A stretch of DNA of 59,401 bases, counting the filler, from Dugesia japonica (taxonomy: Eukaryota), in the NCBI GenBank assembly GCA_001938525.1. It is 5 parts of 5 records of this genome, joined end to end, with 100 filler letters (N's around TTAATTAATTAA, not from the genome) between each part and the next. Parts side by side here need not be neighbours in the genome. Positions count along the whole stretch, not along the records: positions 10,082 to 19,346 come from MQRL01567775.1; 4 more parts are not named here. One strand, written 5' to 3'. Positions 1 to 32,266 of the stretch are shown here, in pieces. Every line of letters starts with the position of its first letter. The first letter of the stretch is position 1. Position numbers and translations under genes: made by a program. The notes beneath the pieces are model-generated. The model was given only the letters and a program-made list of their open reading frames with translations, was not told where the DNA came from and searched no databases.

Positions 1-185
1 AAATTAATTTTGCTAACGCTTGCAAACTGTAATATTGCCCATTGTTCTTTGTTGGAATTCAAAAATACCCCCCCCCAGAAAATTCCTTCAAATTAGTCTA
101 TTAAATTAGCTTAGGAAAATTTCCCTATTAAAATAGCTTTGAAATTTTTTTCTATTAAATAAACTGGGTTTATCCAAGTAATAAA

Positions 186-396
186 CAGAGGGCTCACATC
201 TACATACTATTCATTAAAAAAAGTTTATGATGACAATGTGAATTCCCAATAAATTAACATAGGAAAAATATTTCCATTAAAAAAGATGGAGTTAATGTTT
301 TTAAAATCTTACTTATAAAAATAAACAATCTTTTTCTCTTAATCATAATAGAAATTTTATTAGTAATAAAGAAACAAAATTGATGTGAGCCCTCTG
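186..396. mobile_element. MITE-like element with 15-bp perfect terminal inverted repeats
   Basis: CAGAGGGCTCACATC (186-200) and its reverse complement GATGTGAGCCCTCTG (382-396); no clear TSD. Confidence 0.65.
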
Positions 397-399
397 GGC

Positions 400-1780
400 G
401 CTTTTTTTGGGTACCCCCCAGAAAATTTTTTAGCTTCCTTCATAATTCATTTTTGGTTGGGAATTTTTTCAGTGAGGTCAATTTTTGATTGATTCAGGTG
501 AATTTGGTCAATAATTTGCTTGGTGATATCGAATTAGGTGAATTTTTGACTGGTTTAGAGTAATTTTTGAGTTATTTGATCAAATATTTCCTCAGAAATG
601 GTTAAGTTGGTTAATTTTTGGGTGATTCGGTCAATTATTTACTCGGTTTAGGTAATATTGGTCAATTATTTCTTCGAGTTTGATAATTTTTGAATATTTC
701 GAATATTTCCTCGTGAATGGTTAAGTTTGTTAATTTTTGGGTGATTCGGTCAATTATTTTCTCGGGTTTGGTTAATTTGAGTAATTTTTGGGTGATTTTG
801 TCAAATATTTGATCGGGAATAGTCATTTTGGGTTAGTTTTGAACGATTTATTCAATTATTTATTCGGTTTAGGTAATATTGGTCAACTATTTACTCATGA
901 TTGGCATTTTGCGTGATTGCGTAGAATATTTTCTCTGGATTGGTATTTTTGAGTAAATGGATCGAATATTTCTTTGAGATGGTCAATTTGAGTAAAAGTA
1001 GGGCGAATCGGTCAAATTTTTACTCAGGAATGGTCAGTTTCGTTAATTTTTGGATAATCTTGGTCAATTATTTACTCACAAGGGATCAGTTTTAGGTGAA
1101 TTTGAGTGATAATTTCCTCGGCCTGGTGAGTTATGGTAGAATTTTAAGAAAATTCATGCGAAAAGTCGAATTGGTTTAAATTTTCATGTGTTTTTAATTT
1201 TTTTTTGGAATCCGGGTGAGCAGTCTATGTTGGTTAAATAATATGAAAGTTTTTAAAATTTTTAAATGAATTTTTTATGGGAATCCTGAACCTCCAAAAT
1301 TTTGAAAATTTTTGAAAACAATTTTGTCGAGATTTTTACATCAATCGATACAGAATTCGATGGAGATTATTTTTCACAAAAAAAAATTTTCGAAAAAATT
1401 ATTTCGCGTTTTTTGATAAAATGTGTTAGATAGAGAAATTTTCACTGATTCCTAATATATAAACCTAAAATCCCTAAAGTATATCCGAGATGAAATAAAT
1501 CTATTTTTGACTATTTTAGATGATAATTTAATTTTCATTGGTATTTTTTCTGACTTATTGAATTTCTCACTGTTTGCTGGTCTTCAGTGATCAGTGATTC
1601 GCACACTGTGCACTGGATTTCAGTGTTCTGATGAAAGAGCACTGGATTTCAATCATCACTCTTCTGCTCATTGTGTACTGGTTTTCCCACTTTTTGATAG
1701 TCTTCACTCTTCACTAGTGGTTAATATACTTTTTAATTAATATTTAATTATTTAACCTGTTCTATATTTTTTACTTTTAA
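400..1780 (-). repeat. Dispersed ~2-kb non-autonomous repeat with internal degenerate minisatellites (copy 1)
   Basis: Reverse complement of 33006-35230. GGTCAATTATTTACTCGGTTTAGGTAATATTGGTCAA (~629) matches ~34260, and CTTCACTAGTGG..TTCTATATTTTTTACTT (~1710-1776) matches ~33006-33073. Confidence 0.75.
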
Positions 1781-2334
1781 TTTGAAATTAAATTTGATTT
1801 AGTGTATTTTTTTTAATAAACTGATCTATTTTTATCTTAAAAATCTAATCAAAATTTTATTGATAATATGAAATTTTTATTAGGATTGATTCATTGAAAT
1901 AATTTCTAAACATTCATTGAAAATAATCCATATAATTGATTGAATAAATTAAATATGATGAATTGATTAATTTTCAATGTGTGATTTGATTAAAACTTTG
2001 CTTCTGCGAGTAAATTGAATTACGTTTTGAATAAATTTTTAAAGGTAATTTTGAAAATAAATTTGAAATTTTTTTGGATAAATTAAAATTATAATAGCAA
2101 ATTTATTAAGTATTGAAAATTTTGAAAAAATGTTTTAATAGTAATTTTGAAAATAAACTAGATTTCATGTATATATGAATAAATTTTAAATTTTTACGGT
2201 TAAATTAAAATTATAATATAAAATGTTTATTAAGTATTGATGAAATTTTGAAGGTTTTTAATTAAATATGATGTTATGTGTATTTTTAATTAATGTTTAA
2301 TTTATAATAGAAAATTTTTATTAAGCATTAGAAA

Positions 2335-3350
2335 GATATTCGGAAGAATGTTACAAGAGATTTGAAGAACATTACGAAAGAATATTTTAAAAACAATTTT
2401 GATGTTTTCTATCAACAATGTATTTCAAGTCATGGATGAATTACTTTTTCGGTCACATGTTGTATTTAACTAAGTTTAGAAGCTAATAGAGCCAATCGAA
2501 AAGTTGCAAATTTCTATTTCAACGATTTAGTCTTTAATTGGTTCATTTTTAAAAATAATGATTAATTTCTAGTTATATTTTTGTATACTTGTTTTGCATG
2601 TGCACGTATTTTTTATAGTAGATTGGTCAGAAAAATAACTGGAACCAATAAAAATTCATGAAAAGGAAGAAAAGAACAATTTATATGTTATATGTATAAT
2701 TAAATGTAAATTATTGTAAATGGTTTTTACTTATTAATAAATAAAGTTGTGTCATAATTGTTATCTTAATCAAATATTCACCGTTACATACATTCATAAA
2801 CATCGTCGTACCATACAGGGTCGTCCAAGATAATAATCCAGTTTATTTAAATTGGAAATTTTTATAACGTAGATATCATATTTTCAATAGATTTAGATGA
2901 AAAGATCAGAAAATAAGATTTAGAAAGAAGAATTGTTAGAGAACTTTTTTGATTGACCAAATTGATTCAAATTTTTAATAAATTAAATAAACAATTATGA
3001 TATTTTTTAGAAATATTAAGAAGTTCGAAACTCTAATTAAATCAAGTGAGTACGTTTTAAAAGAAAAACCTTTTGGTTAGTATTGATATTTTTCAATTAG
3101 ATATAACTCGTTATACAATTATAGCACAAAATATACCATTCGATGATTGTATTCAAAATTCATCAATTTTTGGTTCATAAATGTTTTTCGAGAAAACCAA
3201 TTTCATTTCTGAAGAGTCCGTGTGCTTAAAACTACTAAAATGATAACAGCGGTCAAAATGGATATCATTACAGGTTGTTTAATGCCAAATGTTTTTGAAA
3301 GATGTTTCATTGAAGATCAATATCATATGAACAGTATGTGGAATAGGTTT
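2335..3350 (+). repeat. Degenerate duplicated segment (copy A), possibly a decayed multi-exon gene
   Basis: Colinear blocks shared with 5000-5650: CGGAAGAATGTTACAAGAGA, AATCCAGTTTATTTAAATTG, ATGTTTTTCGAGAAAACC..TCATTACAGGT. Confidence 0.6.
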
Positions 3351-4091
3351 ATGTACTAGTTATATTATTACAATAGTTATAACTAGATTATTGGTGCTTT
3401 ATTATTGACAATTTTGTAACTAAAATTATTTGAATTTAATCTGTTTTCTTTTCAGGTATTTCAGAGAATAATAATTTAAATACAGATGAAAGAAAAGAAT
3501 TTGGAGAGAATATAAGAGTAAGAGAAATTGGAGTTTGTTGCATAACGCGCCTGTGCACAATTAAGAAAATTATTGAAACCGAATTTGGTTTTATCTTACC
3601 AATATTTCTTAAAAACCATGCTTCGATTATGTAAACGAAATACGTTTTATTTATGATTTTGTTAATTTCTTACAAGATCAAAAATCCAGTAGCAATTATT
3701 CATTAAACTCAAATTCATAAGACTTAGAATTTCAAAAAATTCAACTTAGCAAAATTTAAAGCAATCAGATTAATTAATTTAGTTTTTCTGGGTTGTACTA
3801 GATTATATTACCTTATATTATTTATCAATGTTATATTATCAAAAGAAATTTTACTCTTAAAAATATTTAAATTAAAGATAATTATTAAAAAATATAAACA
3901 TATAAATCAAAGATACAAATTATATATTAAGGCTGCCAGGGAACATCATGATTCTAAAATTAACATGGTGGACATCATAATTCATGGTCTACTATCATAA
4001 ATTATAAAACATTTAATCCACTTATGCATACGTCCTAGAAGTTTAAAAATTTTTAATATATTTAGTAAAACATATCGATTTCTAATATGTT

Positions 4092-4274
4092 TTCAGTGAT
4101 TTCTCCGGCACGTTTGTTAACATCAACTTCGGCCTTTTTGCAAACAACATGGGCAAATCTTCTACCAACACCTCTAATAGCTGTCAAAGCATAAACAATA
4201 GTTCTTTGACCGTCAATATTAGTATTCATCACACGAAGAATGTGATTGAATTTTCGGGGCATAATTAGCGACAT
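4092..4274 (-). pseudogene. RPS18: 40S ribosomal protein S18 (uS13), 3'-truncated pseudogene fragment
   Basis: [61 protein letters not shown] is the N-terminal part of S18. Homology stops abruptly without an obvious donor, followed by a stop; PEKF is altered to PRKF. Confidence 0.85.
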
Positions 4275-4374
4275 GATTGAAAATAAGTTCAAAAATTTTT
4301 ATTTATATTTGTATATAAAAATTATCTTCAAAAACTTTGTACAAATTGCTTCGATCTAAATAAAAAGAGAAAAA

Positions 4375-4411
4375 GAGATGTTTCGGACAAATCTATGCCC
4401 ATCATCATCAG
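4375..4411 (-). ncRNA. Degenerate Penelope-type minimal hammerhead ribozyme motif
   Basis: Minus strand CTGATGA-TGAT-GGGCA-TAGATT-TGTCC-GAAA-CATCTC. Stem II is formable; stem I partner is absent. Confidence 0.35.
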
Positions 4412-4999
4412 TTACTGTTTGTAAAATAAGAGAGGAAAGTGTTTATATACTGGCCAATAAAATTTGTTNCGTAATCAATACAATGAAATAATATTAAAAT
4501 AAAAAGTGAATGTTTGGCAATCTGAGTATAAAATTGAAAAAGTTTGTTGTTAGATCATGCAAGTTGATAGGCAAACAAGCATCACCGATGAGTTTACAAT
4601 TTTGAACAGCGGTTTTCGTAATTATTTTGAAAGAGTTTGATTCCCCTTGAGATCCACTTGATTTCAATGTGACAAACTTTAATTAATTTGATTTGTGGAG
4701 TTTTATATCGTTTTCTAGGGGTTTTATTGAATTACATTGAATTGTTTTGAGTTTTACAGATTTTATAAGATTTTTATCAAATTTACTGAAGTTTTTAATA
4801 AATAAATGAAGAGGTTTTAATTGGTTCATAAACGCTGTAGAAATCAACCAATACTGTTTCATTATAAGTTTTGATAACGAAAATTTTATATTACATACAA
4901 AAATTCAAAAAACAAAAAAAAATTTTGATCGAAGCTTTTTTTTTAAAACGGATTCACATATTATTCACAAAGGATGATAATTTTATGAGGTGGAAGATT

Positions 5000-5650
5000 T
5001 TCGGAAAAATGTTACAAGAGAATTGAATAACATTTTGAAAGAAGATTTTAAAAGCAATTTTGATATTTTTTCCTTCTCAACTTGTATTTAACAGAGTCTA
5101 AAAGCTAATGAGCCAATCGAAAATACAAGTAAAGGGGAAAGAATTTTTTTTTTAATCGTTTTATTTAATTTTATACTATTTTTTTGTATCTTTCATAAAA
5201 GTAAGTTTTGTGAAAATAATTTAGTTTTTTTNGTGGCAGACAGAAATTTTAACAGTAAGATTATTTGAAATGCATTTTTCCTAAATTTTGTATTTGTAAT
5301 GGTAAATAATCGTGCATATAAAATATTTTATCTGAAACATTCATAAAGAACACGAGAATTTAGTACGGTCAGTCATAGCAAGTAATCCAGTTTATTTAAA
5401 TTGTAAATTTTTATAACGTAAACAATTTGTATATTGTAAAATATTTCAATTTACAACAGATTTAGATGAAAAATATAAGAAAATAAGAATTGTTCGATTA
5501 ATTCTTTTTATGTAAATGTTTTTCGAGAAAACCGATTTCATTTCTGAAGAATCTGTGGGCTCAAAACTACTTTTACACAGCATTCAAAATAGATATCATT
5601 ACAGGTCGTTTAATGCCACATGTTTTTGGAAGATGTTTCATTGAACTTTG
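5000..5650 (+). repeat. Degenerate duplicated segment (copy B)
   Basis: Direct-repeat homology to 2335-3350. Confidence 0.6.
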
Positions 5651-6397
5651 ACTAATGAGTAAACAGAATTTTCGGCTAATCATCAAGTTGTAAAATGTTA
5701 TTGATTTAAAAAATTCATCATTTTTAAAATTTATTATTTGTTAAAACAGTAAAAAATCATTAAAAAATCTCAAGCATAAGCAAATCCAATGTTCCAGAGT
5801 TTAATCGTGATGATTCAATTATTGAAGATGAAAAAGTAGAAATATTCCAAAGAGGAAAGATAATGTTTACAATAAAATAATAGACTTTGAGAATGCTGAG
5901 GCGTTAGAATTTACCCGAAAATGNNNNNNNNNNNNNNNNNNNNNNNNNNNNNNNNNNNNNNNNNNNNNNNNNNNNTTTTTAATAATTTGTACTAATAATT
6001 AAATAATAAATTTTTAATAGTTTTTTTCACGAATCACAACTTTTCATTTTTTAAACAGGGCTCCCAATGGAATTTTCCAGGACTCGGCGAGCAAACAAAG
6101 TTTTAATTTATTTTGGCTTCGAATATTACAAATTTAGAGAAAATACAGACAGCGAAGTGGTAACTTGGAGGCGTAGATAACATCATTATGTCAAGGAAAT
6201 CATTCAAGGAGTAGTTCTAACATTGCCATGACTCATGTCCATAAGACAAAAGTAAAATTAAGATGAACCCAGTTGATGCTACTACAAGAAATATGATTGG
6301 AACTATCTAGCCAAAGCAGAGAAGGAGTTCACCTACCTAATCCAACCACTCCAGAATTTGTCATTGTTGATAGATATGTCTTTATTTTTTCATAACA

Positions 6398-9465: not shown

Positions 9466-10025
9466 GTATTATGATATATTATCCACGACAAGTTATTTTG
9501 GTTATCTGTTTGTTAGCTTAATCAAATACTTTATGTTATATTTACTCAGTTCAGTAATTTATATTATTTTATTGTTAATATAATTTATTTGTGTGTTGAA
9601 AAGGATTTATAGACTTCAAGAGAGTCTGCCGAATTGTATGGTGACATTTGGGGTATATGCGTATGTAGGACGCAAAAATGAAAGTAGAATTTCGTGTAGA
9701 AATAATTTAGGTATACTACAAATAAGAATAAAATAATAACGAAATCAACAGTTAATTAATGAACGTTTATTTATCAAACTGTTAGGGTTGTAAGCTATGC
9801 TTACATTAATTTACCTAATTTATTAATTTATTCATAAAATTTTATTTAATTTATTAAAAATTTCTAATTGTTTAAACTTATCAATTTATTAATTGTTATC
9901 TTATTTATTTATTATTGTTGGGGTGAAACACCGGATTAAGGAAAAAATAATGGCGTAAGTAGACACGGAATTCGAAAGATCNNNNNNNNNNNNNNNNNNN
10001 NNNNNNNNNNNNNNNNNNNNNNNNN

Positions 10026-10037: not shown

Positions 10038-10158
10038 NNNNNNNNNNNNNNNNNNNNNNNNNNNNNNNNNNNNNNNNNNNNATTATTATATCTTTATGTC
10101 GATTTGCATTATTAATATCATGGTTATTAATATTATTATTGCTAGTATGATTATTTTT

Positions 10159-10300
10159 GGGGTTCCACCCGAGTTGGATGGTAAGAAAATAGTGGCTGGG
10201 GAAAAACAGCCCTCAGGGGAACCCGTTCAAGAATTTTACCTACCGCCCCTAGGGTAGGTATTCAGTTCATGGCGGTTGATCTCTCTCTTAATGGGAGGTA
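10159..10300 (+). ncRNA. Conserved multi-stem structure at the element tip (copy 1)
   Basis: Stems GGGTTCC/GGAACCC, GGCTG/CAGCC and TACCTACC/GGTAGGTA, with compensatory changes relative to copy 2. Confidence 0.6.
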
Positions 10301-10410
10301 CACACCCATAAACCTTTGTATTCGGGTTCATTCTTTTCCCTAATATTAGTAGCAAAAAAAAAGAAAAATACGATATTAAATATATACATTTTATTTCATA
10401 AACAAAATTA

Positions 10411-10793
10411 TTATAGCGAATCCAGCGCCCCTGGATCTAACCACTGGGCCGGATCGGTCGCTGAAAAGTTAAAGGTGGCGGTATCGTCATTATCGTCCTA
10501 TTGAATCCAAGTCGGATTGCCTATTTGGCAGGAGAGATCGGCGATGTATTGTTTAAGAAATTCTATCTTGCAGTGTAAAAGTTGTTTCGTCTCTGTTTCT
10601 AAAGCTTTGGTTTGAGCCACCAAGTCGTTCTGCTTCTTTACGATCAGGTCTAACCTCTTTATCAACCTGTCCCTCTGAGACAAATGCTTAAGCAGAGCCC
10701 GGTCAGTCTTACGCTTCAAATGCCTTTCTATCAGGAGTCGGCGCATGATGCGGTGGCATCTACGGAGGTTATTGGGAAAATTGATATGAGGCA
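10411..10793 (-). pseudogene. Cassette ORF D (copy 1), basic/coiled-coil protein with acidic Trp-containing tail; one premature TAG
   Basis: Ungapped, about three-quarters identical by eye to 16156-16550; TGG>TAG at 10498-10500; homology starts at ccAG|TG. Confidence 0.8.
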
Positions 10794-10924
10794 CTGGAAA
10801 ATAAAATAGGTTAAATATATCAGCACTCGACCATAGATCTCAAGCAAACATTAAAGCAATAATGGAATTCATAAGAAAAGTTGAATAATAAGTTTATTAA
10901 CAAAGAGAAAATATTTCCCTAGAA

Positions 10925-11283
10925 TTATCTTCTAGGGGTCTGGGTGCCCTTCTCGACCATCAATGGCTCGAGTGGGATTTTATCCCGAAGAAGCAAAATG
11001 TCGCCAACCAGTTTATTTTCTCGGTCATGGTAGGACCGGATCATCTCTGAGAAAGACTCTACTTGTCTTTTCCAAATGTGTTCTTGGGAATGGGAGGCTT
11101 CCGCTTACCTTTTAAAGAGGGCGCATTTTCTCTTATAGCGCAGGACTTTACTGTTGGCTGTGGCTATTTCGGCTTCCCACCGGCGTTTGGCCAACCGATA
11201 TAAATCCCAAGTGAGTTCAAGATCCTCACTGGTATCCCGGAATTTCTTTGTAGGGGCTGGTTGGCGGTTGGATGAGGAATGCA
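10925..11283 (-). pseudogene. Cassette ORF C (copy 1), helical protein ending in KGTQT; one premature TAA
   Basis: HSSSNRQPAPTKKFRD...RLAKRRWEAE...ENKLVGDIL...VEKGTQTPRR* is homologous to 15666-16025; stop at 11105-11107. Confidence 0.8.
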
Positions 11284-11515
11284 CTAATAAAAATATATAT
11301 ATATCACGACAATAACTTTCATAACTTTAAATTTCTAAAAAGACACAGTAGACACAAATTTGGTTTGTTAAGTGCTAGACCACCCAAATTGACTTATAAA
11401 CTTAGAAAACGACATGTGAACGAGGAAAAAATAATCTCTAAAGAATTACACAGAACATCGAACATTTATTTTAAACAGGGTCATCACGATAAGTTCAATA
11501 GGTTGCACACATTAT

Positions 11516-11872
11516 TTACTGAGGAGGAGTGGATGAGTCCGGCACCGGTGCGGTATTTTCTGAGTCTACGCTACCCGAAGGCTCTCTTATCCCGCAGAGC
11601 AGGTTAGAGATAAAAGCCTGAACTGCGGGAGCTGGGAGTGGCATCGCAGGCTGGTATTGTAAAGGTGTTGCCAGAGTGCGTACAGGGCCTGTCCAGGCTC
11701 GGTATTGTTGACGCTCGCTAAAATCTTGGATGCGAGCCACAATCGACTCTACTGGGGGCAGATTTGATCAGTCGACCAAGATGCCCGCATCACGGTTATG
11801 GGGGTTGTGATACCGCCGGAAAATTATTCGACGGGTTCTTCTATCATCAACACGTTCCCATATCGATTCCAT
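11516..11872 (-). pseudogene. Cassette ORF B (copy 1); one premature TGA
   Basis: MESIWERVDDRRTRRIIFRRYHNPHNRDAGILVD*SNLP is homologous to the N-terminus of 15083-15493; starts ttAG|AATG. Confidence 0.72.
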
Positions 11873-11983
11873 TCTAAAATTAACGGGAATTCGGTTTAAT
11901 TATAACCTATAACCATCTTTTTAACTTAATTAACATTAATAGAAATAAACAACAAATAGAATTGATCAAATCAATAGTTTATT

Positions 11984-12202
11984 TTAGACAAGCAATGGTC
12001 CGATTACACTTCTACTGAGGAAGACGTTTTCTAAATCCGCTGAAGACACTAAAGGGAACATCTCCGCAAAACAGCAAAGGTCTGTTTTATCCGGGTGTTC
12101 AATCCTCCTCTTAGTCAATAGGTGCGCGATCAACTGTTTTAATCGAGTAGCTCGACGTTGTCGCCTTATCCATCGAAGGGTATGACACAACTCGGCCGGC
12201 AT
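11984..12202 (-). CDS. Cassette ORF A (copy 1), 72-aa basic protein of unknown function
   Basis: RLKQLIAHL...IEHPDKTDL..FAEMFP is shared with 14741-14973; starts ttAG|TTCATG. Confidence 0.72.
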   Translation of the reverse strand: MPAELCHTLRWIRRQRRATRLKQLIAHLLTKRRIEHPDKTDLCCFAEMFPLVSSADLENVFLSRSVIGPLLV

Positions 12203-12429
12203 GAACTAAATAAAAGAAGAACACATTTTTTATATCATCACTTGTGATTCAGTCCCTTAAAAAGCGGAACAATTAGTGCAGCCAGATGATATTAATAGAA
12301 AACCGCTATATCAGTCCTCTGAACAAGTTTAATTTAAATTCATCACTGATTATTGAGAAACTTGTCCAGGTTCATAACCCTCGTAATAAAGGTACTATTT
12401 CTGATCTTACTAAGGATGCTACTCGCCAA

Positions 12430-12961
12430 AAAAACGTTAATAACAATCATAACAACAATACGAGTCATAATATTAGTGCGGATACTACTCATAAGGTAGA
12501 TAGTAAGGGCAATAATAGCAATACAGAATTATTAATAATTTTAATAGTAATAGGGCGATAAATCATACTAATGATGATAATGTGAATGACGTCGAAAATA
12601 TAGTTGAATAAACGGGTCACTGATATTCAAAGTAATAATACAATTATTAACAATGACAGCAATAATATTAGCAATACTAATAATAGTAATGATAATCATA
12701 ATACAGATAATAATAATGGTACTAATAATAATATTGATAAGGGTAATGGCAACATTAGTAATAANNNNNNNNNNNNNNNNNNNNNNNNNNNNNNNNNNNN
12801 NNNNNNNNNNNNNNNNNNNNNNNNNNNNNNNNNNNNNNNNNNNNNNNNNNNNNNNNNNNNNNNNNNNNNNNNNNNNNNNNNNNNNNNNNNNNNNNNNNNN
12901 NNNNNNNNNNNNNNNNNNNNNNNNNNNNNNNNNNNNNNNNNNNNNNNNNNNNNNNNNNNNN

Positions 12962-13035
<74 letters not shown>
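12430..13035. repeat. (AAT)n microsatellite, degenerate to perfect, inside the LTR-like element; contains an N gap
   Basis: Direct sequence. Confidence 0.9.
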
Positions 13036-14740
13036 CGTAAAATTAAAATTTTTTCTCCTTTTAAATTCTTGCGCGTCATCGTTGCTTGGCGATTCCCCCC
13101 TTGGTAACAGATTGAATTAAGTTATTTTAAATCGGTGTTTGCCATATTATGTGTGCATTTTATCTAGGTGCGTGTGTTTATTTTGTTGGTCTAGCTCCAA
13201 CTGCTATATGTGTGTATGGCGAAGTTTATTTAATCGATGTGTCCTCTAGTTGCCTAACTATGAGGCAATGCAAGAGTGTGTATATAGAAGTTAGAGTTGG
13301 ATGTCGTGTATCAACACTGGGGGTTTACTAAATTTGTAGGATCTTCCTCACACCTACTATGGAAAAGGAACTGGGAAAACCGTAACGAAAGGAATTTTAA
13401 CACACCTATTTACTATTCTGGCAATTCATAATATTCACCATTTTATCATATAGAGGAGGTTTAATTTAATTACTTCCACTGCTAAACGAAGCTAGTCACT
13501 CTTCACAAAATCAATGCCACTATTGTAGAACGGAAATTTAGCGGACTGTGACCTGGTCATAGATATTATTGGAATTTTCTCGTTGGAATTTATCCTATTG
13601 TGAGAATATAATGAGTTATGAACCTATTGCACAGTCAGGGGTGAGTTATGAGTTACAAAAAAAAATTTCTTATTTCGGTTACTTATTTGATCCAATTATC
13701 AATGGAGTGAAACTCTCGTTTAGTTGGCTTATAGAATAAATAACTGACTTAAAAATTTCTTGTTTTTTATTATTATCTATTTATTATCAAAGAATTATTA
13801 AACATAAAACAATTTATATTTACCATATTTATTATATAAATCAACGTATAAATAATAACACCAAACTTTACTTTTAATATAGAGTGATGATTCTGCAACG
13901 AGGAGTGATAGGAATGTGGGAGAATCCAAATTCAACGTAATTCTCGGCTTTCTAATTTCTTTCTTCGATTTTCACTGGTAAAACGATCTTTTTCTCTACA
14001 ACGTGGTATTAATTTCTAAATGTTAAAGTTTCTAGTAATTTCTATCTTACGAGTAATATTCTGATATTGAGTCGCCAAATTTCTGCTCACTGCAAGATTT
14101 TTCCACAATTAATATTAGGATAACATAGTGGATAGTTGACTTTGCAATTTATAATCTTCGAATTAAGTCGTAATGATATAAGTTGATTTCGTTTTTTTTG
14201 TAGTTTTTTCGTTACTTTCTCTGGGGGTTTAAATAGCTTCCTGAATACACCCCTTTTAATTAATCTATTTTTTTTCTTTATAATTAATTATTCTGGTTAA
14301 TCATTTTCTCGTTATTAAATAATAGTTCAGTAATTTCCTTGATTTGATATTCTCAGTACTCATTTATCAGCTTTTCTTAGATTGTTCCTCTCGTTATTAA
14401 TTTTCTACCTGATTTCGTTTTGGTATTTGTAATACCGTATTATTCCTTTTTCTCTTTAGGGTACTTGTTGGTAGTGATTATCTAGTTTCCTCCTTGACTG
14501 GTTGTTTCGCCCCAACATTATTAAAATCGTCATTATTGGTAATACTATCATAAATATTGTTAGGCTTACCATCAATTCCAGTAGTTACTAATCACTATTG
14601 AAGCCGTTTATTTATTTTATAGCTCAAGAGGATTTTAAGTTGATAATCGTGATTAAGACCAAACGTCCTCGAATGCTAAATGCTCATTTTATAGACGTAT
14701 TAAGTTAATGATGGTTTTAAAATTCAAAATTATTTAGAAT

Positions 14741-14973
14741 ATGACCACAGAGCTGAGCATCATGTTATCCGGAAGCCGTAAACAACGTAAGGTTTATCGA
14801 TTAAGACAGTTGTTGGCGCACCTTTTCTCCCGAGGTAAAATAGAACATCCCGACGAAACGGATTTAGCTTTTTTCGCGGAGATGTTCCCCTCGGTGACTT
14901 CAGTAGATATTGATGGGGAAAAAGTACTCTCTTAGGTACGAGTACAAACATTCAACCATTATTACCTGTTTAA
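14741..14973 (+). pseudogene. Cassette ORF A (copy 2), frameshifted near the C-terminus
   Basis: RLRQLLAHL...IEHPDETDL..FAEMFP; the tail IQPLLPV* (cf. IGPLLV*) is in a shifted frame; starts ttAG|AATATG. Confidence 0.72.
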
Positions 14974-15082
14974 CATAAAATTTAAAATTGAATAGTTATG
15001 TTTGTGTTCTTGTTTTACTTTTAATTGTTTTACCTTAAAGAAATCATAATTTAAACAAATTTCTGGTTTATCTACTTATAGA

Positions 15083-15493
15083 ATAGAGTTCGTATGGGAA
15101 ACACTATACGATCGCCAGACCAATAAAGTCGTTTTTAAAAGATACTGAAACCCCCATGATCGTAATGCGGGGGTTCTCACAGAATATTCTAACATGCCTT
15201 CCCAAAGAGAGTGGGCTGCAGCGCAGCGCCAAGCATTTTACGAATAGCGCGGACCCGACCATACGCAAGAGGTGCTCCATCGCACCACAATTATAGATCC
15301 CAAAACCAATCAGACCATTAGTGCATGGTGAGAAGGTTCTGCATTCTTACCTGTATCGGCAGAGCATCTACCACCCAAGTCTGGAATAGATGTTGATCAA
15401 GGTAATACGTTATGGGAACTACGAAACCAGGCCGTAGGTGGAACCTCCGAAAATTTTAATAATGTTGTCACAGGTGGAGCTCGAGTTGGCTGA
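15083..15493 (+). pseudogene. Cassette ORF B (copy 2), ATG>ATA and three in-frame stops
   Basis: EFVWETLYDRQTNKVVFKRY*NPHDRNAGVLTEYSNMP aligns with copy 1 ORF B; starts atAG|AATA. Confidence 0.68.
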
Positions 15494-15665
15494 TCTTTGA
15501 AATCTCATTTCCCACTATTTCATGATAAATATATGTTTCCTCTGTATTTCTACAATTATTCCACTATTTTTAATACCTACATTAGGGAATTGAGTGTTAA
15601 ATTGTTAAGTTCTATCGTGTTTTCCGCTTTTGACTAATTGTGTTATAACACTATTTAATTTTTAG

Positions 15666-16025
15666 TGTATTCTTCTTTAAATCGGGCTGTAGCGCCTACT
15701 AAGAAGCTGCGAGAATCCAGTGACGATACAGAAATCACTTTGGACCTTTTTTAGGCTCGCAAAGCGCCGTTGGGAAGCCGATACTGCGACCACCGAGGCT
15801 AAAGTTAAACGTTATAGAAAGAAATGTTTGGAATTTAAGAATGAAGCCAAGGCATCTCACATCCAAGAAAGGGTTTGGATGACCCAGTTAGAAATGCTCA
15901 CTGAAATCATCCGTTCCTACCAAGACCAAGAGAATAAACTGGTTGGTGATATTTTAAGAATACGAAAGGCAATGCCTTCTGCACCATTTATGGTGCATAA
16001 AGGAGTCCAGACATCACGGTTGTGA
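15666..16025 (+). pseudogene. Cassette ORF C (copy 2), +1 T in a homopolymer at ~15750
   Basis: YSSLNRAVAPTKKLRE...RLAKRRWEAD...ENKLVGDIL...VHKGVQTSRL*; starts ttAG|TG. Confidence 0.78.
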
Positions 16026-16155
16026 ATGTTGTTCAACTCTTTAATGATAATAAATAATTCTCTTTTCGACTCAATGTTTTCAGATGATTCTTTCGTTTAG
16101 GTTCAATATATTATTTTAACTTAAAATAAATTAGAATTAATGTCATCATATTTAG

Positions 16156-16550
16156 TGCCTCGAATTACTTTCCCTAACAGTTTGAGACGTTGCCACCGAA
16201 TAATGCGTCGATTATTAGTAGAAAGACACCTTAAACGCCAATCAGATCGTGCCCTCTTGAAGCATCTTTCTCAGCGCAACCAATTGATTAAAAAATTAGA
16301 TTTGATCGTTAAAAAGCAGCATGATTTGGCAATTCAATCCAATAATTTAGAGGAGCAGACTAAACAGCTGCTTCTGAGAAAAATAGATTTCCTAAAACAA
16401 AATATCTCTGACCTTTCGCGTCAACTTGGGAACCCGACCTGGGTGCAGTGGGATGACAATGATGACCAAGCAACTTTTGACTTATTAGTTACAGACCCAG
16501 CCCAGTGGTTAGACCCCGGTGCTCTGTACGAAATGTATTTATTGCAATGA
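16156..16550 (+). CDS. Cassette ORF D (copy 2), intact ~131-aa basic/coiled-coil protein
   Basis: Open frame, homologous to 10411-10793 with mostly synonymous codon differences; starts ttAG|TG (the in-frame ATG at 16140 is not shared with copy 1). Confidence 0.8.
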
Positions 16551-16634
16551 AATATGGTCTAAAATTATGTTTTGATTGGTTTATTTGTTAATATAGTAAG
16601 GAAATAAGGAACCCAAAATAAAGGTGTATGAGTG

Positions 16635-16780
16635 AGTACCTCCCGTAAAGGTCGAAGGTCAACCGCTCTGCCCCGAAGATCTAACTTAGAGACGTTAGAT
16701 TAAAATTCTTGAAGGTGATTCCCTGAGGGCCGATTTTCCCCGGCCAGCGTTCTTTTTACTATCAACTCAGGTGGAACACC
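16635..16780 (-). ncRNA. Conserved multi-stem structure at the element tip (copy 2)
   Basis: Stems GGTGTTCC/GGAATCACC, CCTGAG/CTCAGG, GGCCG/CGGCC and ATCTAAC/GTTAGAT. Confidence 0.6.
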
Positions 16781-17092
16781 AACATTTATACTTGCTTCAA
16801 AGACGTATGTTTCCAACTCAATTTTTAAGAGTTTACACAATGGAGAATCAGTGAAAATCCTTTCTATGATTTTCTAAAAACCATTTAATGGTTTTGAATT
16901 ATTTTTCTATACCTTACAGTTATTTCAATTTCAAAATCCAATTTAGAGATCTACAAAAATCTCGTTCAAGCTACGTATTTCTCCATCTTTTCATAGTCTT
17001 TATTGCTTTTATGAAGAATAATTAAAAAGCTCATTTTGAAGGTATTAAATAGTATTTCTAATTCACAAAATTTATCCACGATTGCTTTAGTA

Positions 17093-17890
17093 CAGTCATG
17101 GGCAAGTTGAGACCCACAGACCACAATCATATTTCGAAGAGAAACAATTTTTTTAAAAATTAAATTTGGACAATAAACTTGTAAAATTAATATGATTGAA
17201 AGGCTTGAAATATGGACAACTCATTAATTTCTTTCAAAATATTGAATCTGAGTACACAGATATTTCTTTCCAGAGGGAAATTTGATGGCTCAGTTAAAGG
17301 AAAGTGTTTCGTAGAGTATGAAATTTAAAATATGACATCATTCTATTTTTGGAAATGAAGAATATTGTGAACTTTCCTGGATTAAGTGATAATGACTGGC
17401 TTTGAGATTTTGCATTGACTCTGGGCATAGTGAATCACCAAAATACTTTTTACTCCGTGTTACATAAAAAAAATTTATTTTCTAATAATATGGTGAAAAA
17501 TTTAAATGGATTTCAATTAAAACTCAAATTGTTTCTTCAACATTTATTGAATAAAAAGTATACTATTTTTCAACCATAAAGTTGTTAAAGAAACCTAAAA
17601 ATAAATTTTAAACATATGTAGTTATCAACGCTTTGAGTGACAATTTGGACAAANACTCTGCGACTTGTTTAACTTTTAAAACACTGAAACAAATTTGGCA
17701 AAAGTACACGATCCATTTTTAATAGATTTTGCTAAATTCCGAGTTAGTTACTGTTTGAAATGATAGATCTGAAGTGTGATTCTGATTAAAGGGAATCGAA
17801 CCTCCGCAAAGAAATCTGTAAATTTTTAAAAGTTCGGGCCAAATTAAAGATTTATTTCCTATGGTTATTTTTGGATCAACTTACAGCTGA
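17093..17890 (+). mobile_element. Degenerate hAT (SPIN/GTF2IRD2/EPM2AIP1-like) transposon
   Basis: IESEYTDISFQREI*WLS*RKVFRR...LFLEMK...FPGLSDNDWL*DFA; TIR-like start CAGTCATGGGCAAG. Confidence 0.75.
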
Positions 17891-20089
17891 TGATTCTCAT
17901 TAATTATGATAACTAATATAACTAACAAAGAAAATGATCTTTCGAATAGATAAACAATGTAAATTCAAAGTTTAAAGTGACAAGTATACAATTACTATAC
18001 AATTTTGAATGTCCGAAATATAGGTTGACTGATATATTTTAAGTATTTTTAGGGTTGTATGCTAGGCTTACATATTTTAATGAGTTATAAAATTTAATGA
18101 TTTTTTTTAAATTTTAAAGGGTAAACTAGAATTAAACTAAAAATTAGTAAATATTATTTTAATTAAATAAAAATAAATCTTTTATAAAAATTACTTATTT
18201 TAGATATTGTGATTTTAACTATTAATGTAATTAGAAATGATCGTTTTTGGTAAATAAGAATTCACAAAATCTACGCATAGTTTTTATGCAAATTTTTTGT
18301 CAACAAAAGAATTGATGCATAATTTTATGCAAACTTACGATTTTCGAAAATGGTATAAATACTGATTTCAAAATCAGTGTAACAACAGAGAGTTAAAAAA
18401 ATTTATTGTAGCTAATATATAGCAGTGAAAAAAAATTATTATTTTTTTTAGCAGTTAAACCTAATATTATAGCTAAATTTAGCAGTTTTTTAGGTAAATT
18501 ATAATATTTAAAATTTTCATTTTATTGAGTGGAATAGTAAAAATCAGTTATTGATTATTATTATTTCAAAATAAGTATCTAAGTAATAACACAGTGGTTT
18601 AAACACTTATTTATTAGTTGTTTAGTTGTTATAAAATATCGTCCCAAATTAATTAAGTGTGGTTTGGAAACGAGGCCCACCATTCTGCTCTTATCAGGCC
18701 GGTATTGTAATGCCGGTATTTATCTTTCTATTAAAATCACTATATAGCGGTTTTCGTTAATACCTAAAATTAATCAACCCTTGTGCAAATTGTAATTTTT
18801 ATTTGTAAATTATAGTTGATTTATCTTAATAAAGTTTATAAAATATAAAATCGTTCTCTTAGTTATTTATTGTTATTATTATATCAAGTTATTTATATCT
18901 AATTAATTAATTAAATACCTACACGCATCTTTTAAAGCAAAATTTGGAGTCAGTAAATAAATTTTTATTTCTTACCCACGAGATCTAACAGTATTTATTA
19001 AGACAAAATAGTAAATATGTAATGACTATACAATATTTAAATGTATGAAATTTATAATGACTGATATATTATTAAATAAATATACTGAAATGGATAAGTA
19101 TATGATTACTATAAAATTTTGAATGTCCAAATATTATGATATATTATTCATATGCGAGTTGACATAAATTTGATGACATTAGCAAAAATATACAATTATT
19201 GACGATGATAACTGATGGTTTTTAAACTATTGTAGCTATTAGTTAAATTTAAAGTCTCACAAGTCTCCATAATTTTTTTATTGATTATTACAAGTCTTTT
19301 CTTAAAAATAAAAATATGAAATAACAATTCACAAATTTCAAACAAANNNNNNNNNNNNNNNNNNNNNNNNNNNNNNNNNNNNNNNNNNNNTTAATTAATT
19401 AANNNNNNNNNNNNNNNNNNNNNNNNNNNNNNNNNNNNNNNNNNNNTTCCTCTTATTTTGCACCATTTCCCATCATTTACCACTATTTAGCTATATTTAT
19501 GAATAAATGGTAAAATTTCCCTTATTTTAGTAAAATTATATATATTTTAATAGTGATGATACAAATTCAAATTCAATTACTTACAATAAGATATATATAT
19601 GTATATTAGATTTAAAATAACGGAAATTTTACTAAAACTATTCAAAAAATTACTAAAATAAGTGACAATTTACTAACTGTTCTTAAATTTAGCTATATTT
19701 ACTCTATTTTGCCATAGTTTCTTTATTTTTTAATGGGTTTTAATGCATATTTTCACTTCATATTTTCAAAGATCTCACTTCACTAATCTTTAAAGAGTGT
19801 CATATATTGATAAAAGAAGACAATAAGATTGGTGATAGTGAGTAAGAGTTGATATGACATGCTTTTTATTTAAAATAATGAAACTATTTTAGTATATTTT
19901 AGTCGTATAATTATCCTTCTGCTTCATTTCTTGCTCATTGGCATCCTTGCTTGCTTTTTGGTTTTATGGGTTTCTTTTTCCTTTTGATAGCCAATATTTA
20001 GAGACATTGTTAGAAAAAAGACTTCAATATAGAAAATAAGTATCTCAACATTGAAAATATTAGTTTCAATAGATAAAATTAAGGTCCTA

Positions 20090-21700: not shown

Positions 21701-23529
21701 TTTTTTTAAAGGTAGGATGTGTAAATAGATGGGAGAAGAGCCTAGGATAATTTCACGAGAAAATCAAAAAACTTTGTTTAATATAAAAAAATGATTTATT
21801 TTTAAAAATGACGAGTCTTGCAAAGATGNNNNNNNNNNNNNNNNNNNNNNNNNNNNNNCACTTGGATTATTCTAGAAATCCTCGTTAACGATTCCTATAA
21901 ATTTGGATGAAGTGTGAACGAAATAAGCAAATTAAGAGTAATTTCTAAAAATAGGCTTAAAAACACAACAAAGAATTAATTACTCAGACTTAATTATTTT
22001 CTATAGACTTTTGAAATATTTTGATGTTTAATCGAGGTTAAATATAGGTTGGGCAATGATTAATTAAAAATATAAAATTACTAGAATAGAATAAAATAAA
22101 ATAATAGAGAAAGAAAGAACCAATAAACACAATTTATTTGCAAATTGTATTTGATAGTTTATTATCATGATCATCGTAATTATTATTTGCATAATTTACA
22201 AAACAATTCATCTCTCTTATTATTGATAATCAATGTTAATTATAATTATAAACACAATTATAAACACACAGGCGCATGCAAGCTTTACGAAATTCAACCA
22301 ATCAAATTGAATGCTTTGATTTCTTTGTTGCAGTCCTAAAATTAATGAAAAAATAATGTTTAAATTAATTTTAAAAAATTGAAGTAACTAAATCGTGAGT
22401 AATCAATCTTAAATATTCGATGTTTCCTCTTGATGCTGACTTGAGGTGGAAACGGAGTGGGATCAGGCGAGAAATTATATCCCACATTGATTGGTTGGAT
22501 AGATGATTGCAAATTCTGATTGGTGTCTAAAATAATTCTTAGAATTTCTGTAAATTTCATTTTAATTGAGTAATAAAATATGATTATTAATTACGTATAT
22601 TTTAACAAAATATTAATAAAAAAATATTTTCGAAAAAATTAACTAAATTATATTTGTCCATTCTTCGTTGTAATTTATAGAAATATAGTTGCCATTCAAA
22701 ATATTTTAAATTTTACAATAAAACATATATAAAAACATTTTTTTAATATTTAAAACATTTAAATTCTTCAATCATTTTATTTTTTATTTATTTGAAATAT
22801 TAATTTTGATTTTTTAAAGAAACATTTTGGTTAATATTTTTTACTAATTTTGATAAATATCTGATTTAAATAAATGAAAAAATTTATTTTTATTTTTTTT
22901 AAGAAAGACAAATTTTTTTAAATAAATTTTTTTAAAATGTTGATCTTAAAGAATTTTCATAGAAATTCAACTCGATATTTTGAAATTTATATTTTTGTTG
23001 AAAATTTAATATTTATAAAATTTTACAATGGAAAAATTAATAATTTTTTTAATGTCGAAAATTTTAAATTAAATAAAAGAACAGTAGGATACCAATCTCA
23101 TTAAATTAAAAGCTTCGATTAAAATGTTATTTTGCGTTCTCAGAATTTTTCACTATTGTCTTCTTCACGAATTCAAGAAAATGGTTGAAAATTCGGATTA
23201 CTACGAAATAGGAGATAAAAAGAAACAAAATAAAATTTTGATCGAAGTTTTTATTTTAATTCAACAAAATTTCAAATACAATCAATGGTTAAGTTCAATA
23301 ATTATTCTAGTAGTATTTGTAATAGTAAAATTGTTATTCAATAATGTTTAAATACTTTTAGAAAACAAATATTAGAGTTGTAAAAATCAAAAATAAAAAT
23401 TTGTGATCAGTTCAAAATCAATAATAATTTAAATATGAAAAATAGAAATATCCCAGCTAATAAATAATTATGCCAAAAATTCCACTTGATTTTACGAATT
23501 TTTGACAAATCGATAATGGAAATGATCTG

Positions 23530-25720
23530 ATCAACGAGTTCTTCCCTTTCTTGGCATTTTCATGTGACATTCGACATTGCACACATACCTCACATTTTGG
23601 TCTAGATAACGTATCTGCATTAGCATGTTGAATTCCTTTTCTATATTCCAAAATCATATCTAATTTGCTCAGATAATTAATCCATGTCTGGAATTGCGAC
23701 GTAATTGGTTTCTTTGTCGTCATCATGAAAGTTAGAGCTNNNNNNNNNNNNNNNNNNNNNNNNNNNNNNNNNNNNNNNNNNNNNNNNNNTTTGTGATCTG
23801 TTCTAAGAGTAAATCTTCTACCATACAAGTAATGTTTGAATTGTATACAGAAATAATAAACAGTTAATAACTGTTTCGTGTAATGCAGCATTCTTTTTCA
23901 TGAGTTGTCATTGAGTGTGATCCATAGGCAACAACTCTTTCTCTTCCTTCTTTATCTCTCTGTGACAATACTGCTCCAATTGTATCGAAATTGGCATCCG
24001 TATCTAATATAAATTCTTTGTTTATGTCCGGAAAACACAATATTGGTGCAGTCATTAGAGAATTCTTTAGACCATGAAAAGTATCGTTTATTTCATCTGT
24101 CCATTCTAATTTCTTGTTGCTTGGTCCGCTACACAACTGCTCTAATATNNNNNNNNNNNNNNNNNNNNNNNNNNNNNNNNNNNNNNNNNNNNNNNNNNTA
24201 TTTCATCTGTCCATTCTAATTTCTTGTTGCTTGGTCCGCTACACAACTGCTCTAATATCTTTAATTTTCTTGGGTAGTTTTCTATAAACTTCCTGCAATT
24301 CCAAACAAATTCCCAAAAAACTTCGTAATTTCTTCACGCAGTTAGGTTTGCCAAATGTTCTTATAGCTTCTATTTTAGACGGATCAGTTCTAACACCATC
24401 ACTGCTAATTATGTGTCCAAAAAACTTGATTTCACTTTGAAGAAACTGACATTTTTCCCGATTAATTTTTAGACCAGCCTTCAATATTTCCGTCAATACT
24501 CTTTTAATTACTTCTTAGTGTTGGTCTTTATTGTTCGTAAATATCAGTATGTCATCAAGATAGACCATGGCTCCATTGATTCCGCCTACCACNTTTGTCA
24601 TCATCTCTTGAAATGTCCCTGGTGCCGCTGCGATGCCAAATGGATTTCTATTAAAACAATATTGCCCGTGTTTCGTTGAAAACGCTGTTTTTTCTTGAGA
24701 TTATTCTTCGAGCTCTATTTGATAGTATGCATTTCCAAAATCTCTTGAACTGAAATATTTTGCTCTATCTAACTTGTCCAGCATTTCATCGACATTAGGC
24801 ATCGGAAAGGCTTGTCTTTTCGTTACTGCATTCAATTGTCTGAAATCCAAACATATTCTTATGTCTTTCTTTTCCTTTTTCAAAACACATATCAGTGGAG
24901 TATTCCATGGAGAGTTGCATTTCCTGATTATTCTCGAAAAGGTTTTGGATAGCTTCTTCAATTTTAGATTCTAAGTTCATTGGTTGTCTATATGGTTTTA
25001 CATTGATTGGTTCACCACTTGTGATTATTTTGTGTCTTGTTAGATGTGTGCGTCCTACATCCCATTTATCTGCCATAAAAGCATCTTCTTTACTTTCAAT
25101 TATTTTCACTAACCGTTGATTCTCTTTAATATTCAAGATATTTAAACCTCTTTTCAATCGCTCTCCTTTTTTAATTTGTCTCCCAAATTTCGTTTCAATA
25201 TTACAATTATAATTTTCGACTTTTTCATCCGTTTTGCTATTGAATTTTCACATTTTTGGAATTATCCAAATAACCTCTACATTCCTCCTATCAGATCTGG
25301 TGTCACTCTTTAAGCAACTAAAAAAGTATCTCTTTGCAAACTTCATCAATTATCACTCCGGTTTTAACTTTCCCAACAATTTCAAGTGTATTATTATTTG
25401 CACAACGCAATCTTTCATCACTCATTTCTAAATTTCCTTCTCGTAATTTATTAAAACAAGTCAAACTGATCACATTAATTCGAGCCCCTGTATCTAATAG
25501 ACATTCTACTTTATTTCCTTGAATTGATACCGTAACACTTGGTCTGCCTTGCAATTTATGGTACGAAGTATTTATTTTCTTTCCTGCTTCAACTGTTCCA
25601 ACCTATTCTACTTTTCTATTATTTGCAAAATTTTCACTCTTTAAGAACCTGTATACTTTTTCTGTAACTTTTCCTATATCATCCAACTTTTCGACTTCTT
25701 GAGGATAATACCTAACTTCA
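23530..25720 (-). mobile_element. Degenerate Ty3/Gypsy LTR retrotransposon (gag end, protease, RT, RNase H)
   Basis: CLLDTGA protease motif, RICLDFRQLN, VYLDDIL (~24550-24567), FILDTDA..IGAVLSQ, YLYGRRFTLRTDHK; multiple frameshifts. Confidence 0.93.
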
Positions 25721-28189: not shown

Positions 28190-29430
28190 GCAATTCGGTA
28201 AAAGTTGGAGTCAATGATCAAAAATTCACATTTATGGTAGACCAGATCCCAACTCTTTAAAAAAGTGAAAGACTTGGTCGATAAAATTTTAGCAAACGGG
28301 GGAAAAACGAAAAAAACTCTTGTCAAAAATGCTAATAATTTGTGCAGATAGTACAAAAAGCAGAAGAGATAATCATACGAAAATTGGAGAAAGTAGAAGA
28401 TTTAAAAGAAACGTTATCATTAGTTGAAGAAATAGAAAGTAGAGAACCTATTAACGTAGTAAAGATTTACGTGGGTGTAACAAGTGAAGAACGTACCTGA
28501 GAAAGGAGACAAAATTTCGAGAGAGTTACGAAAAGAACAGAGCGACGGTGTTGAACATGCCAGAGTTATGGGCATACAAAATGAGTGTCCAAAAGGTTTA
28601 CAAGTGGAATGTTAGACTTACCACAAAAAAGGCCATTTAAGTAGAAATTGTCCAGACAAGAAACCACCAAAATGTTTTGAGTGTGGTAAGGTAGATCAGA
28701 TCAGAAGAATTTGCACAGAAATTGTATGTGGTAGATGTAACAGATCAGGTCACAGAGCGGAAGAATGTTATTCGAACAATAATAAAACAAAGACAAGAAG
28801 AAAGAAGACACCATTTTAAAAGCAAACAACAAACAAAAGATTGGAGTCGGACCAAACAAATCCATATCATGCGAGAAGAGCATAGTGATGAGAATGAAAA
28901 GATATTTTCTGGGAGCATATATAAAATGAAGATCCAAGCAAAGCAAACCCAAAAGGCAGGGCTCCATCAGTAGAGGTGTTGTTCAGAGTCATTCATTAAA
29001 CGAGATACCGTTTGAATTTCCTCAAGAGAACGAGAAATGGGATGAGACAAGTAAAGTGAGAGAAAATGCTTACATATTCCTAAAAAGAGGAAGTTTCAAT
29101 GATACGGAATTGAACAAAGCAAAAGTGATAGGAACAATTGAAGAGAAACAGAATGTAGAAATTTTGTATGATCAGATGCAAGGGAGACGTCGCCTTTCAG
29201 TGATGATCAAGGGTGAACACTTTGATTGTTTGTTAGCTAAAGTAGCAAGAATAATTGTAATGAGCATAAAAGGATTTAGTAGACTCGGAGAAACAATATT
29301 AGAAAAGACGAGGAACAATTGCTTTGCGTGAATAACAGCTCATTTGAGACAATTGGAAAGTTACGTGTGGAAGTTGTAGTTTCAGAGGTGTGCAAGGAAG
29401 TAACATTTATAATAGTAGAGAAATTAATGA
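28190..29430 (+). mobile_element. Degenerate Gypsy gag-protease fragment
   Basis: Several decayed CCHC knuckles (C.TCQSYGH, KKGHLSRNC, CFECGK, CGRCNRSGHRAEEC); MQGR..SVMIKGEHFDCLL parallels the protease at 25554. Confidence 0.82.
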
Positions 29431-29431
29431 C

Positions 29432-29575
29432 ATATCTTGATAGTATGCATTTCCCAAGTCTATTGATCTAAAATACTGTGCACTTTTTAAAGCATCCAGC
29501 ATTTCATCAACATTTGGCATAGAAAAACTTGTCTTTCTGTTATTGGATTGAGCTGTTAAAGTCTAAGCATAATCG
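29432..29575 (-). mobile_element. Gypsy RT fragment, inverted relative to the adjacent gag-pro
   Basis: QLNPITERQVFSMPNVDEMLD...IDLGNAYYQ. Confidence 0.78.
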
Positions 29576-31891: not shown

Positions 31892-32266
31892 TTATTTTCT
31901 CCCTTTCCCAGAATATTCGTAGAATCCCTTGCCGGATTTCACTCCCAAATGGTTCTCACTCACTAATTTATTCAGAAGAGGAATCGGATTGAAAAGTGGA
32001 TTATCGGGAAATTTTTCATGCCAACCATCAATAATAAATTGGATTGTATCGAGACCCACATAATCAGCAAGAGTAAACGGTCCCATAGGATGGCTGGCAC
32101 CAAGGCGCATTGCTGTATCAATGTCTTCGCAAGTAGCTTCATTTCTTTCCAGCATTCTCACAGCTTCACCAAGATAAGGTACTAATAATCGATTGACAAT
32201 AAATCCTGGAGTATCCCGACACTTAACTGGAGTTTTACCGACAGATTTAGCAAATTCGAGTAACAT
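31892..32266 (-). CDS. HADH: 3-hydroxyacyl-CoA dehydrogenase, terminal exon
   Basis: [61 protein letters not shown], preceded by a CAG acceptor; upstream exons are not seen (gap/linker). Confidence 0.93.

Follow-up and report, generated by a model that had tools for sequence, protein, structure and literature searches.

The window analysed here, a stretch of 59,401 nucleotides of Dugesia japonica DNA including filler, consists of AT-rich contigs joined via N-flanked linkers. On the contig at positions 10082-19346, 77 nt from its start, begins a structured motif, which is one tip of a delimited 4.4-kb solo LTR (copy 1). The same fold is found in a second LTR (copy 2), and the features of both copies are the following:

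10151..10154, no strand assigned: left target-site duplication TTAT, with its partner at 14518-14521
10155..14517, minus strand (the somewhat more probable sense strand): copy 1, complete solo LTR with a terminal inverted repeat
10160..10224, minus strand: predicted enclosing helix, 10160-10166 with 10218-10224 and 10168-10173 with 10212-10217
10174..10193, minus strand: one-sided 20-nt loop, equal in length in both copies, 10/20 letters alike ungapped
10194..10211, minus strand: hairpin H1, 5 pairs, 8-nt loop (7/8 alike), one double change
10226..10238, minus strand: invariant 13-nt linker between the two domains
10238..10259, minus strand: hairpin H2, 7 pairs, 8-nt loop (5/8 alike), two double changes
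10272..10301, no strand assigned: two conserved motifs (10272-10279 and 10293-10301) with no supported pairing
10411..12202, minus strand: four small decayed ORFs of copy 1, at about 12202-12017, 11872-11516, 11283-10920 and 10793-10411
14518..16784, plus strand: copy 2, LTR remnant, which holds copy 1 in its AT-rich part and resumes at 10082-10154
14741..16550, plus strand: four small ORFs of copy 2
16617..16645, plus strand: AATAAA hexamer of copy 2, immediately followed by a GT-rich tract, at a distance of 167 nt from the LTR end
16674..16784, plus strand: the same fold in copy 2

The original prediction had placed the motif in an LTR-like element, which we could confirm and sharpen to a delimited solo LTR. 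Copy 1 is 4,363 nt long, a gap of 197 N included, and its ends form an 8-bp inverted repeat (7/8 matching) of the TGTTRNR...YNYAACA type, which is the LTR-end consensus given in the excerpted text of PMC3601003. The same type of end is present at copy 2 and at a further copy at position 9916. The TTAT duplication of copy 1 falls within the range of 4-6 bp; the tetranucleotide accounts for 15 of the 293 local 4-mers, which corresponds to a probability of about 5% by local chance. The tip of copy 2 lies at 16784 and this copy runs leftwards, i.e. inverted relative to copy 1, and since both flanks of copy 1 are AT-rich sequence of copy 2, we conclude that copy 1 inserted head-to-head into copy 2. 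Over the last 600 nt the two copies are 68% alike. A 5'-truncated 3' end of a Penelope-like element or a LINE with an AAT tail was rejected in view of the inverted ends and the target duplication, of the AT-rich flank, which belongs to copy 2, and of the absence of a hammerhead core. Neither a third copy of this tip, for which a two-copy profile search was used, nor a full-length element was found in the window; no internal region is attached, and neither a PBS nor a PPT is in view. The LTR itself may already be catalogued in repeat libraries.

Other sequences in the window are of more familiar kinds. At 9916-9981 lies a far-end tip, probably of a third LTR copy, which has TTAT in front of it and is truncated where the contig ends. 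In the flank of copy 2, positions 16785-17700 look by eye like a decayed transposase, which we take to be of the hAT type from its motifs. On other contigs, 23460-25602 (minus strand) and 28616-29468 (plus strand) hold ordinary gypsy gag-protease-RT-RNase H fragments (RT_RNaseH E 1.8e-5), and a degenerate tandem repeat with a unit of 51 nt forms two arrays in inverted orientation, at 537-1776 and 33006-35147, which lie on different contigs. The C-terminus of a host 3-hydroxyacyl-CoA dehydrogenase, 67-76% identical to many invertebrate proteins, is encoded at 31895-32287 (minus strand), and 4065-4298 (minus strand) looks by eye like ribosomal protein S18.

The four small ORFs lie on the strand opposite to the one on which the motif had originally been read. 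In both copies each of them begins at, or follows, an AG that resembles a splice acceptor, and the third and fourth open with TG right after the AG, likewise in both copies. Since each ORF starts at or just behind an acceptor-like site of its own, one multi-exon gene is less likely than separate small ORFs. The first and the last ORF carry basic patches (6-7 R/K per 15 residues) and the last one looks coiled-coil; no protein family was found for the small ORFs, and protein searches with the last ORF of copy 2 returned no credible homolog, two matches being repetitive proteins. Opposite the small ORFs, an Asn-rich frame (12277-12764, plus strand), which has no clear counterpart in copy 2, runs into an AAT array inside the LTR. 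Beside this array, a GC-richer island at 13060-13110 contains a G-run and a TGGTAACA motif; it may be a promoter, or else mark where a nested piece ends.

Of the 2.1 kb that can be aligned between the two copies, the tip is the 100-nt segment with the highest conservation, with 74% of the last 100 columns alike as opposed to 32-70% in the other 100-column windows. The compensatory changes that had been described for its two hairpins are indeed present: GGCTG/CAGCC of H1 (10194-10198/10207-10211) is GGCCG/CGGCC in copy 2, which amounts to one double change, and ACCTACC/GGTAGGT of H2 (10238-10244/10253-10259) is ATCTAAC/GTTAGAT, which amounts to two. Taken together, H1 and H2 comprise 12 pairs, and over both copies all 24 of 24 cells are paired, exclusively as Watson-Crick pairs and with zero G-U. 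Six changes occur in the 24 hairpin positions, all of them within the three compensated pairs and none single-sided. With 18 of 24 letters alike, compared to 73% for the tip as a whole, the stems change at the regional rate, and as they do so only in pairs, we conclude that the structure is kept rather than the letters.

The covariation in H1 and H2 is real, its basis being two copies and three double changes. Two such local, pure Watson-Crick helices were obtained in none of 2000 column shuffles (null mean 0.024), and the same holds for three double changes (0/2000). When the hairpins of copy 1 were taken as given and the 56 observed substitutions were dealt randomly in 200,000 trials, all 12 pairs survived in a fraction of 2.9e-4, and survived together with at least three double changes in a fraction of 2e-5. 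Sliding the register reduced the paired share from 97% to 22-53%, and a partner shuffle (62/500) has no power with two rows. Template switching in DNA synthesis copies one repeat arm onto the other, and could therefore have perfected imperfect inverted repeats and mimicked compensation with no selection involved. The outcome of such an event would be what we see in that all changes give perfect Watson-Crick pairs with no G-U, and in that the comparison comprises n = 2 copies. However, the correction would have to have occurred in each of two separate hairpins, unpaired letters are kept too (7/8 in the loop, 13/13 in the linker), and the ORF blocks of the same copies lack such a local concentration, with 4 double-change helices on both strands of about 1,010 columns versus 5 over 172, so that we consider this the least probable of the readings weighed here.

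A long-range helix had also been proposed, which corresponds to the enclosing helix. It folds in both copies, but the outer part can be aligned only if the register is shifted; the CCYGAG/CTCAGG extension is conserved, but without any double change, five of its pairs being invariant and one varying. The varying inner pair is C-A on the plus strand and G-U on the minus strand in copy 1. Structure prediction gives the enclosing helix for either copy, whichever strand is folded, and the helix overlaps the integrase-end repeat. Given the outer register shift and the inner pairs, which are never doubly changed, it rests on prediction plus conservation. The 13-nt linker is the longest identical run outside the ORFs; it resembles a heat-shock element (nTTCnnGAAn), and on the ORF strand of both copies it holds AAUUCUUGA, which we take to be one letter off the consensus of an Sm site, the single-stranded AU(n)G that small RNAs carry between two stems. 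Further pairings are not supported. The pseudoknot or switch between ACCGCC and GGCGGT suggested previously is specific to copy 1, as 4/6 pairs remain in copy 2 with two mismatches. A candidate pairing of the H2 loop with the strand ending at 10219, which would carry a single double change plus a G-U pair on the plus strand, was rejected as 26% of shuffles produce helices of this kind, and a loop-loop pairing of H1 with H2 was rejected upon inspection, since a common register is absent across the two copies. A palindromic loop common to both copies was not found.

H1 and H2 are both strand-symmetric, and the inverted repeats could also act as DNA, either as dyad binding sites or as hairpins in single-stranded intermediates of reverse transcription. 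The reader of such sites would be a host factor or one of the small basic, coiled-coil proteins of the LTR, with the linker as a putative transcription-factor site. Several properties are consistent with this: the absence of G-U among the 24 hairpin cells, a fold that is also predicted with DNA parameters, spacers of 8 nt in both hairpins, the invariance of the 13-nt linker, and the basic patches of the ORFs. However, it is not unusual for 12 RNA pairs to include no G-U, and nested helices around a one-sided 20-nt loop represent a single-strand architecture, which duplex dyads do not need. The binding itself would be putative, and we regard an action as DNA as unlikely.

In the public sequencing run X2, 6,693 contigs aligned to 10082-12430, and the summed contig depth, which is not a copy number, amounted to 265,934 at 10161-10239 and to 41,347 at 10240-10318; bins starting at 10398 or later had values of 129-6,352, except for 10951-11108. 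From this peak we conclude that far more abundant relatives have the tip core in common with this LTR, no other part of the repeat being as abundant in public DNA; 55 of the X2 contigs end their match at 10236. The excepted bins correspond to a conserved patch of the third ORF, for which the depth of 25,000-55,000 versus about 1,000-5,000 around it indicates that this patch is common to more abundant relatives as well. At position 10210, in the stem of H1, T accounts for 425,807 of the summed depth of 630,887 in X2, and the partner of this position, 10195, is not among the variant rows listed (40 of 524). This variant is either compensated or part of a pair that holds only on the strand of the original prediction, and it could favour that strand. 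In three RNA runs we found no reads at least 95% alike; the 201, 55 and 19 reads obtained from 13.6, 11.6 and 10.5 million records were nearly all partial matches, mostly on the AT-rich flank. Among the public data sets listed as carrying the sequence, none was of RNA. A pattern scan of metagenome contigs gave 8 matches, 8/8 of which are due to chance as flanking stems and ORF likeness are absent, and a scan of viral contigs gave 0 matches. Likewise, a search with the motif letters did not retrieve the element sequence from 7 supplementary files of PMC13524379, and among the matches listed for papers none is relevant beyond PMC6431247.

An Rfam scan of the two tips yielded no match: the best E values, 1.8 and 1.6, are far below gathering scores, and these sub-threshold matches fall in different families for the two copies. 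The models for HDV-like ribozymes, twister, snRNA, snoRNA, IRES, 5S and hammerhead are unmatched by either tip, and the sequence lends no support to self-cleavage, since CTGAnGA, which together with GAAA makes up the hammerhead core around three stems, is absent on either strand of either tip. No tRNA was detected, and the tRNA and 5S models are unmatched, a result that could miss a much decayed remnant. An LTR derived from a small RNA, of the Cassandra, Helenus or Ajax type as described in excerpts of PMC10886601, was rejected, as no tRNA- or 5S-derived sequence was detected.

We favour, with a modest preference, the tip as the U5 end on the ORF strand, which is the minus strand in copy 1. 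Compared with shuffles, folding z-scores on the ORF strand are -2.85 and -3.21, as opposed to -1.39 and -2.26 on the opposite strand, and the two-row consensus gives -6.5 versus -4.2. Copy 2 contains the AATAAA and GT-rich tract ahead of the fold, a layout described for the R/U5 border in the excerpted text of PMC3601003 and PMC2664473, where R-U5 is also described as the more conserved, stem-loop-bearing part of the LTR. At the matching place in copy 1 the canonical hexamer is absent. The tip studied here is alike at 53/67 positions and the far tip at 39/67 (copy 1 vs the 9916 copy), different copy pairs being compared in the two cases.

If the tip instead represented the start of U3 on the strand originally chosen, the structure would lie in the 3' UTR of the genomic RNA, just after the polypurine tract, with a possible role in export, in stability or in the context of plus-strand priming; the small ORFs would then be antisense genes. 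Raw folding energies indeed tie between the strands (-39.7 vs -39.3 and -33.2 vs -32.3), and the T at 10210 in two thirds of the X2 depth would give a G-U pair on the plus strand if its partner is unchanged. In addition, the far tip of copy 1 folds as a 3' end on the plus strand (z -2.30), and hairpins on the PPT side have been reported for Sire and HIV in the excerpted part of PMC3601003. These points are opposed by the weaker z-scores and the C-A mismatch in copy 1, which is G-U on the other strand, by the terminal stem of the far tip, which is predicted in copy 1 but not kept in the 9916 copy, and by the nearest AATAAA on the plus strand, which is located 780 nt from the far end. Moreover, according to the same excerpt of PMC3601003, conservation at the start of U3 is usually poor once the att site is passed. 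The hairpin with G-U pairs (10279-10284/10294-10299), which had been taken to mark the sense strand of the LTR, can form on the plus strand; however, on that G-rich strand a conserved local helix of at least 6 pairs is found in 60% of 400 shuffles. Being at chance level, the hairpin says nothing about the strand, and the balance of the evidence leans to the opposite one. We consider the start of U3 a doubtful assignment, albeit the most probable of the alternatives.

With the tip as the U5 end, the small ORFs would be followed by the poly(A) signal, the GT-rich tract, H2, the linker, the terminal domain and the CA end, and in a full-length element by the PBS. In this arrangement the fold would lie immediately upstream of the primer-binding site, near the start of the element RNA, where it would help to start reverse transcription or to select RNA for packaging. 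The fold would be found only at the 5' end of transcripts running into the internal region, and it would lie beyond the point at which the small-gene RNAs are polyadenylated. Such a position, before the PBS and past the small-gene poly(A) site, fits priming or packaging and not 3' stability. Hence, of the cis-acting structured RNA initially proposed, the conserved fold at the LTR tip stands, whereas on the ORF strand it is unlikely to act in 3' stability: copy 2 has a single canonical poly(A) hexamer near this end, and the fold comes after it. A role in packaging or priming is plausible by analogy with known elements, and one in export is possible. U5-IR structures occur in retroviruses and in Tf1. 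By analogy with retroviral U5/PBS segments, which overlap att and priming signals, the terminal helix would join the sequence at the integrase end to a part of U5 located about 60 nt upstream. Overall, we see about an even chance that the hairpins and the enclosing helix form a folded U5 region for the start of reverse transcription or for packaging.

The basic patches of the first and last ORF could also point to a response element, i.e. a fold bound by an arginine-rich protein of the same LTR in order to export unspliced RNA or to boost transcription. The acceptor-like sites ahead of the four ORFs in both copies imply spliced and unspliced RNAs, and RexRE and TAR are LTR stem-loops as well, as excerpts of PMC2664473 describe. 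However, basic patches are common, no homolog of the ORFs was found, neither splicing nor expression was seen in the three RNA runs, and a fold in U5 would lie downstream of the poly(A) site, unlike RexRE. A response element is thus very unlikely in our view, and we would assign a similarly slim chance to the more far-reaching idea that the LTR is a regulatory cassette, which combines arginine-rich proteins with a tip RNA bound by one of them, resembling Tat/TAR or Rex/RexRE with an independent origin in invertebrate gypsy-type elements.

The folded U5 region, which remains our preferred reading, can be compared with several known systems. In retroviruses, the integrase site and the signals for priming and RNA fate overlap within the PBS segment (PMC11181671, in excerpt); as in these U5/PBS segments, structured RNA at the LTR end overlaps the integrase attachment site, and terminal sequence is predicted to pair with upstream LTR sequence. 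In contrast to them, PBS adjacency is only inferred here and there is no Rfam match, and the one-sided 20-nt loop, the stacked hairpin and the invariant 13-nt linker are not among the features in the excerpted text of PMC11181671. The R-U5 stem-loops of HML, gammaretroviruses and lentiviruses (PMC2664473) and the modules of animal Metaviridae (PMC3601003), again as excerpted, share with the planarian LTR the type of ends, the AATAAA and GT-rich tract as far as copy 2 is concerned, a conservation that is highest near one end, stems that keep structure over sequence, and, in some LTRs, long ORFs inside. However, these stem-loops are mostly located in R, whereas the planarian fold would be wholly in U5, and the LTR described here measures 4.4 kb with four small ORFs.

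Among planarian elements, the giant gypsy-like Burro and GYPSM1 are similar according to the excerpted text of PMC6431247, with multi-kb LTRs implied by their sizes, a very high copy number, accessory ORFs, tandem repeats and an AT-rich invertebrate host; LTR RNA structure is not described in that text, and the comparison is one of descriptions only. The 5' end of Ty1 RNA is compactly folded with roles in priming (PMC4974528, in excerpt), and Ty1 and Ty3 would share with the planarian fold a compact 5' structure of an LTR-retrotransposon RNA, which in the Ty elements is tied to priming, dimerisation and packaging. The pseudoknot of Ty1 involves R and sequence downstream of the PBS, whereas the supported pairs found here are all inside the LTR tip, in which a pseudoknot is unsupported.

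RNA structures for priming and packaging have been mapped in retroviruses and yeast Ty elements, while in the literature excerpts considered we found no description of RNA structure for planarian LTR elements or of covariation in gypsy RNA. Structured LTR ends as such are already known; the tip fold reported here matches no Rfam family. As a 110-nt fold common to two LTR lineages that are a third diverged, it represents a defined target for probing, and it provides a marker to find and orient these giant LTRs. If a protein encoded by the LTR binds the fold, RNA regulation in the style of complex retroviruses would extend to invertebrate retrotransposons.
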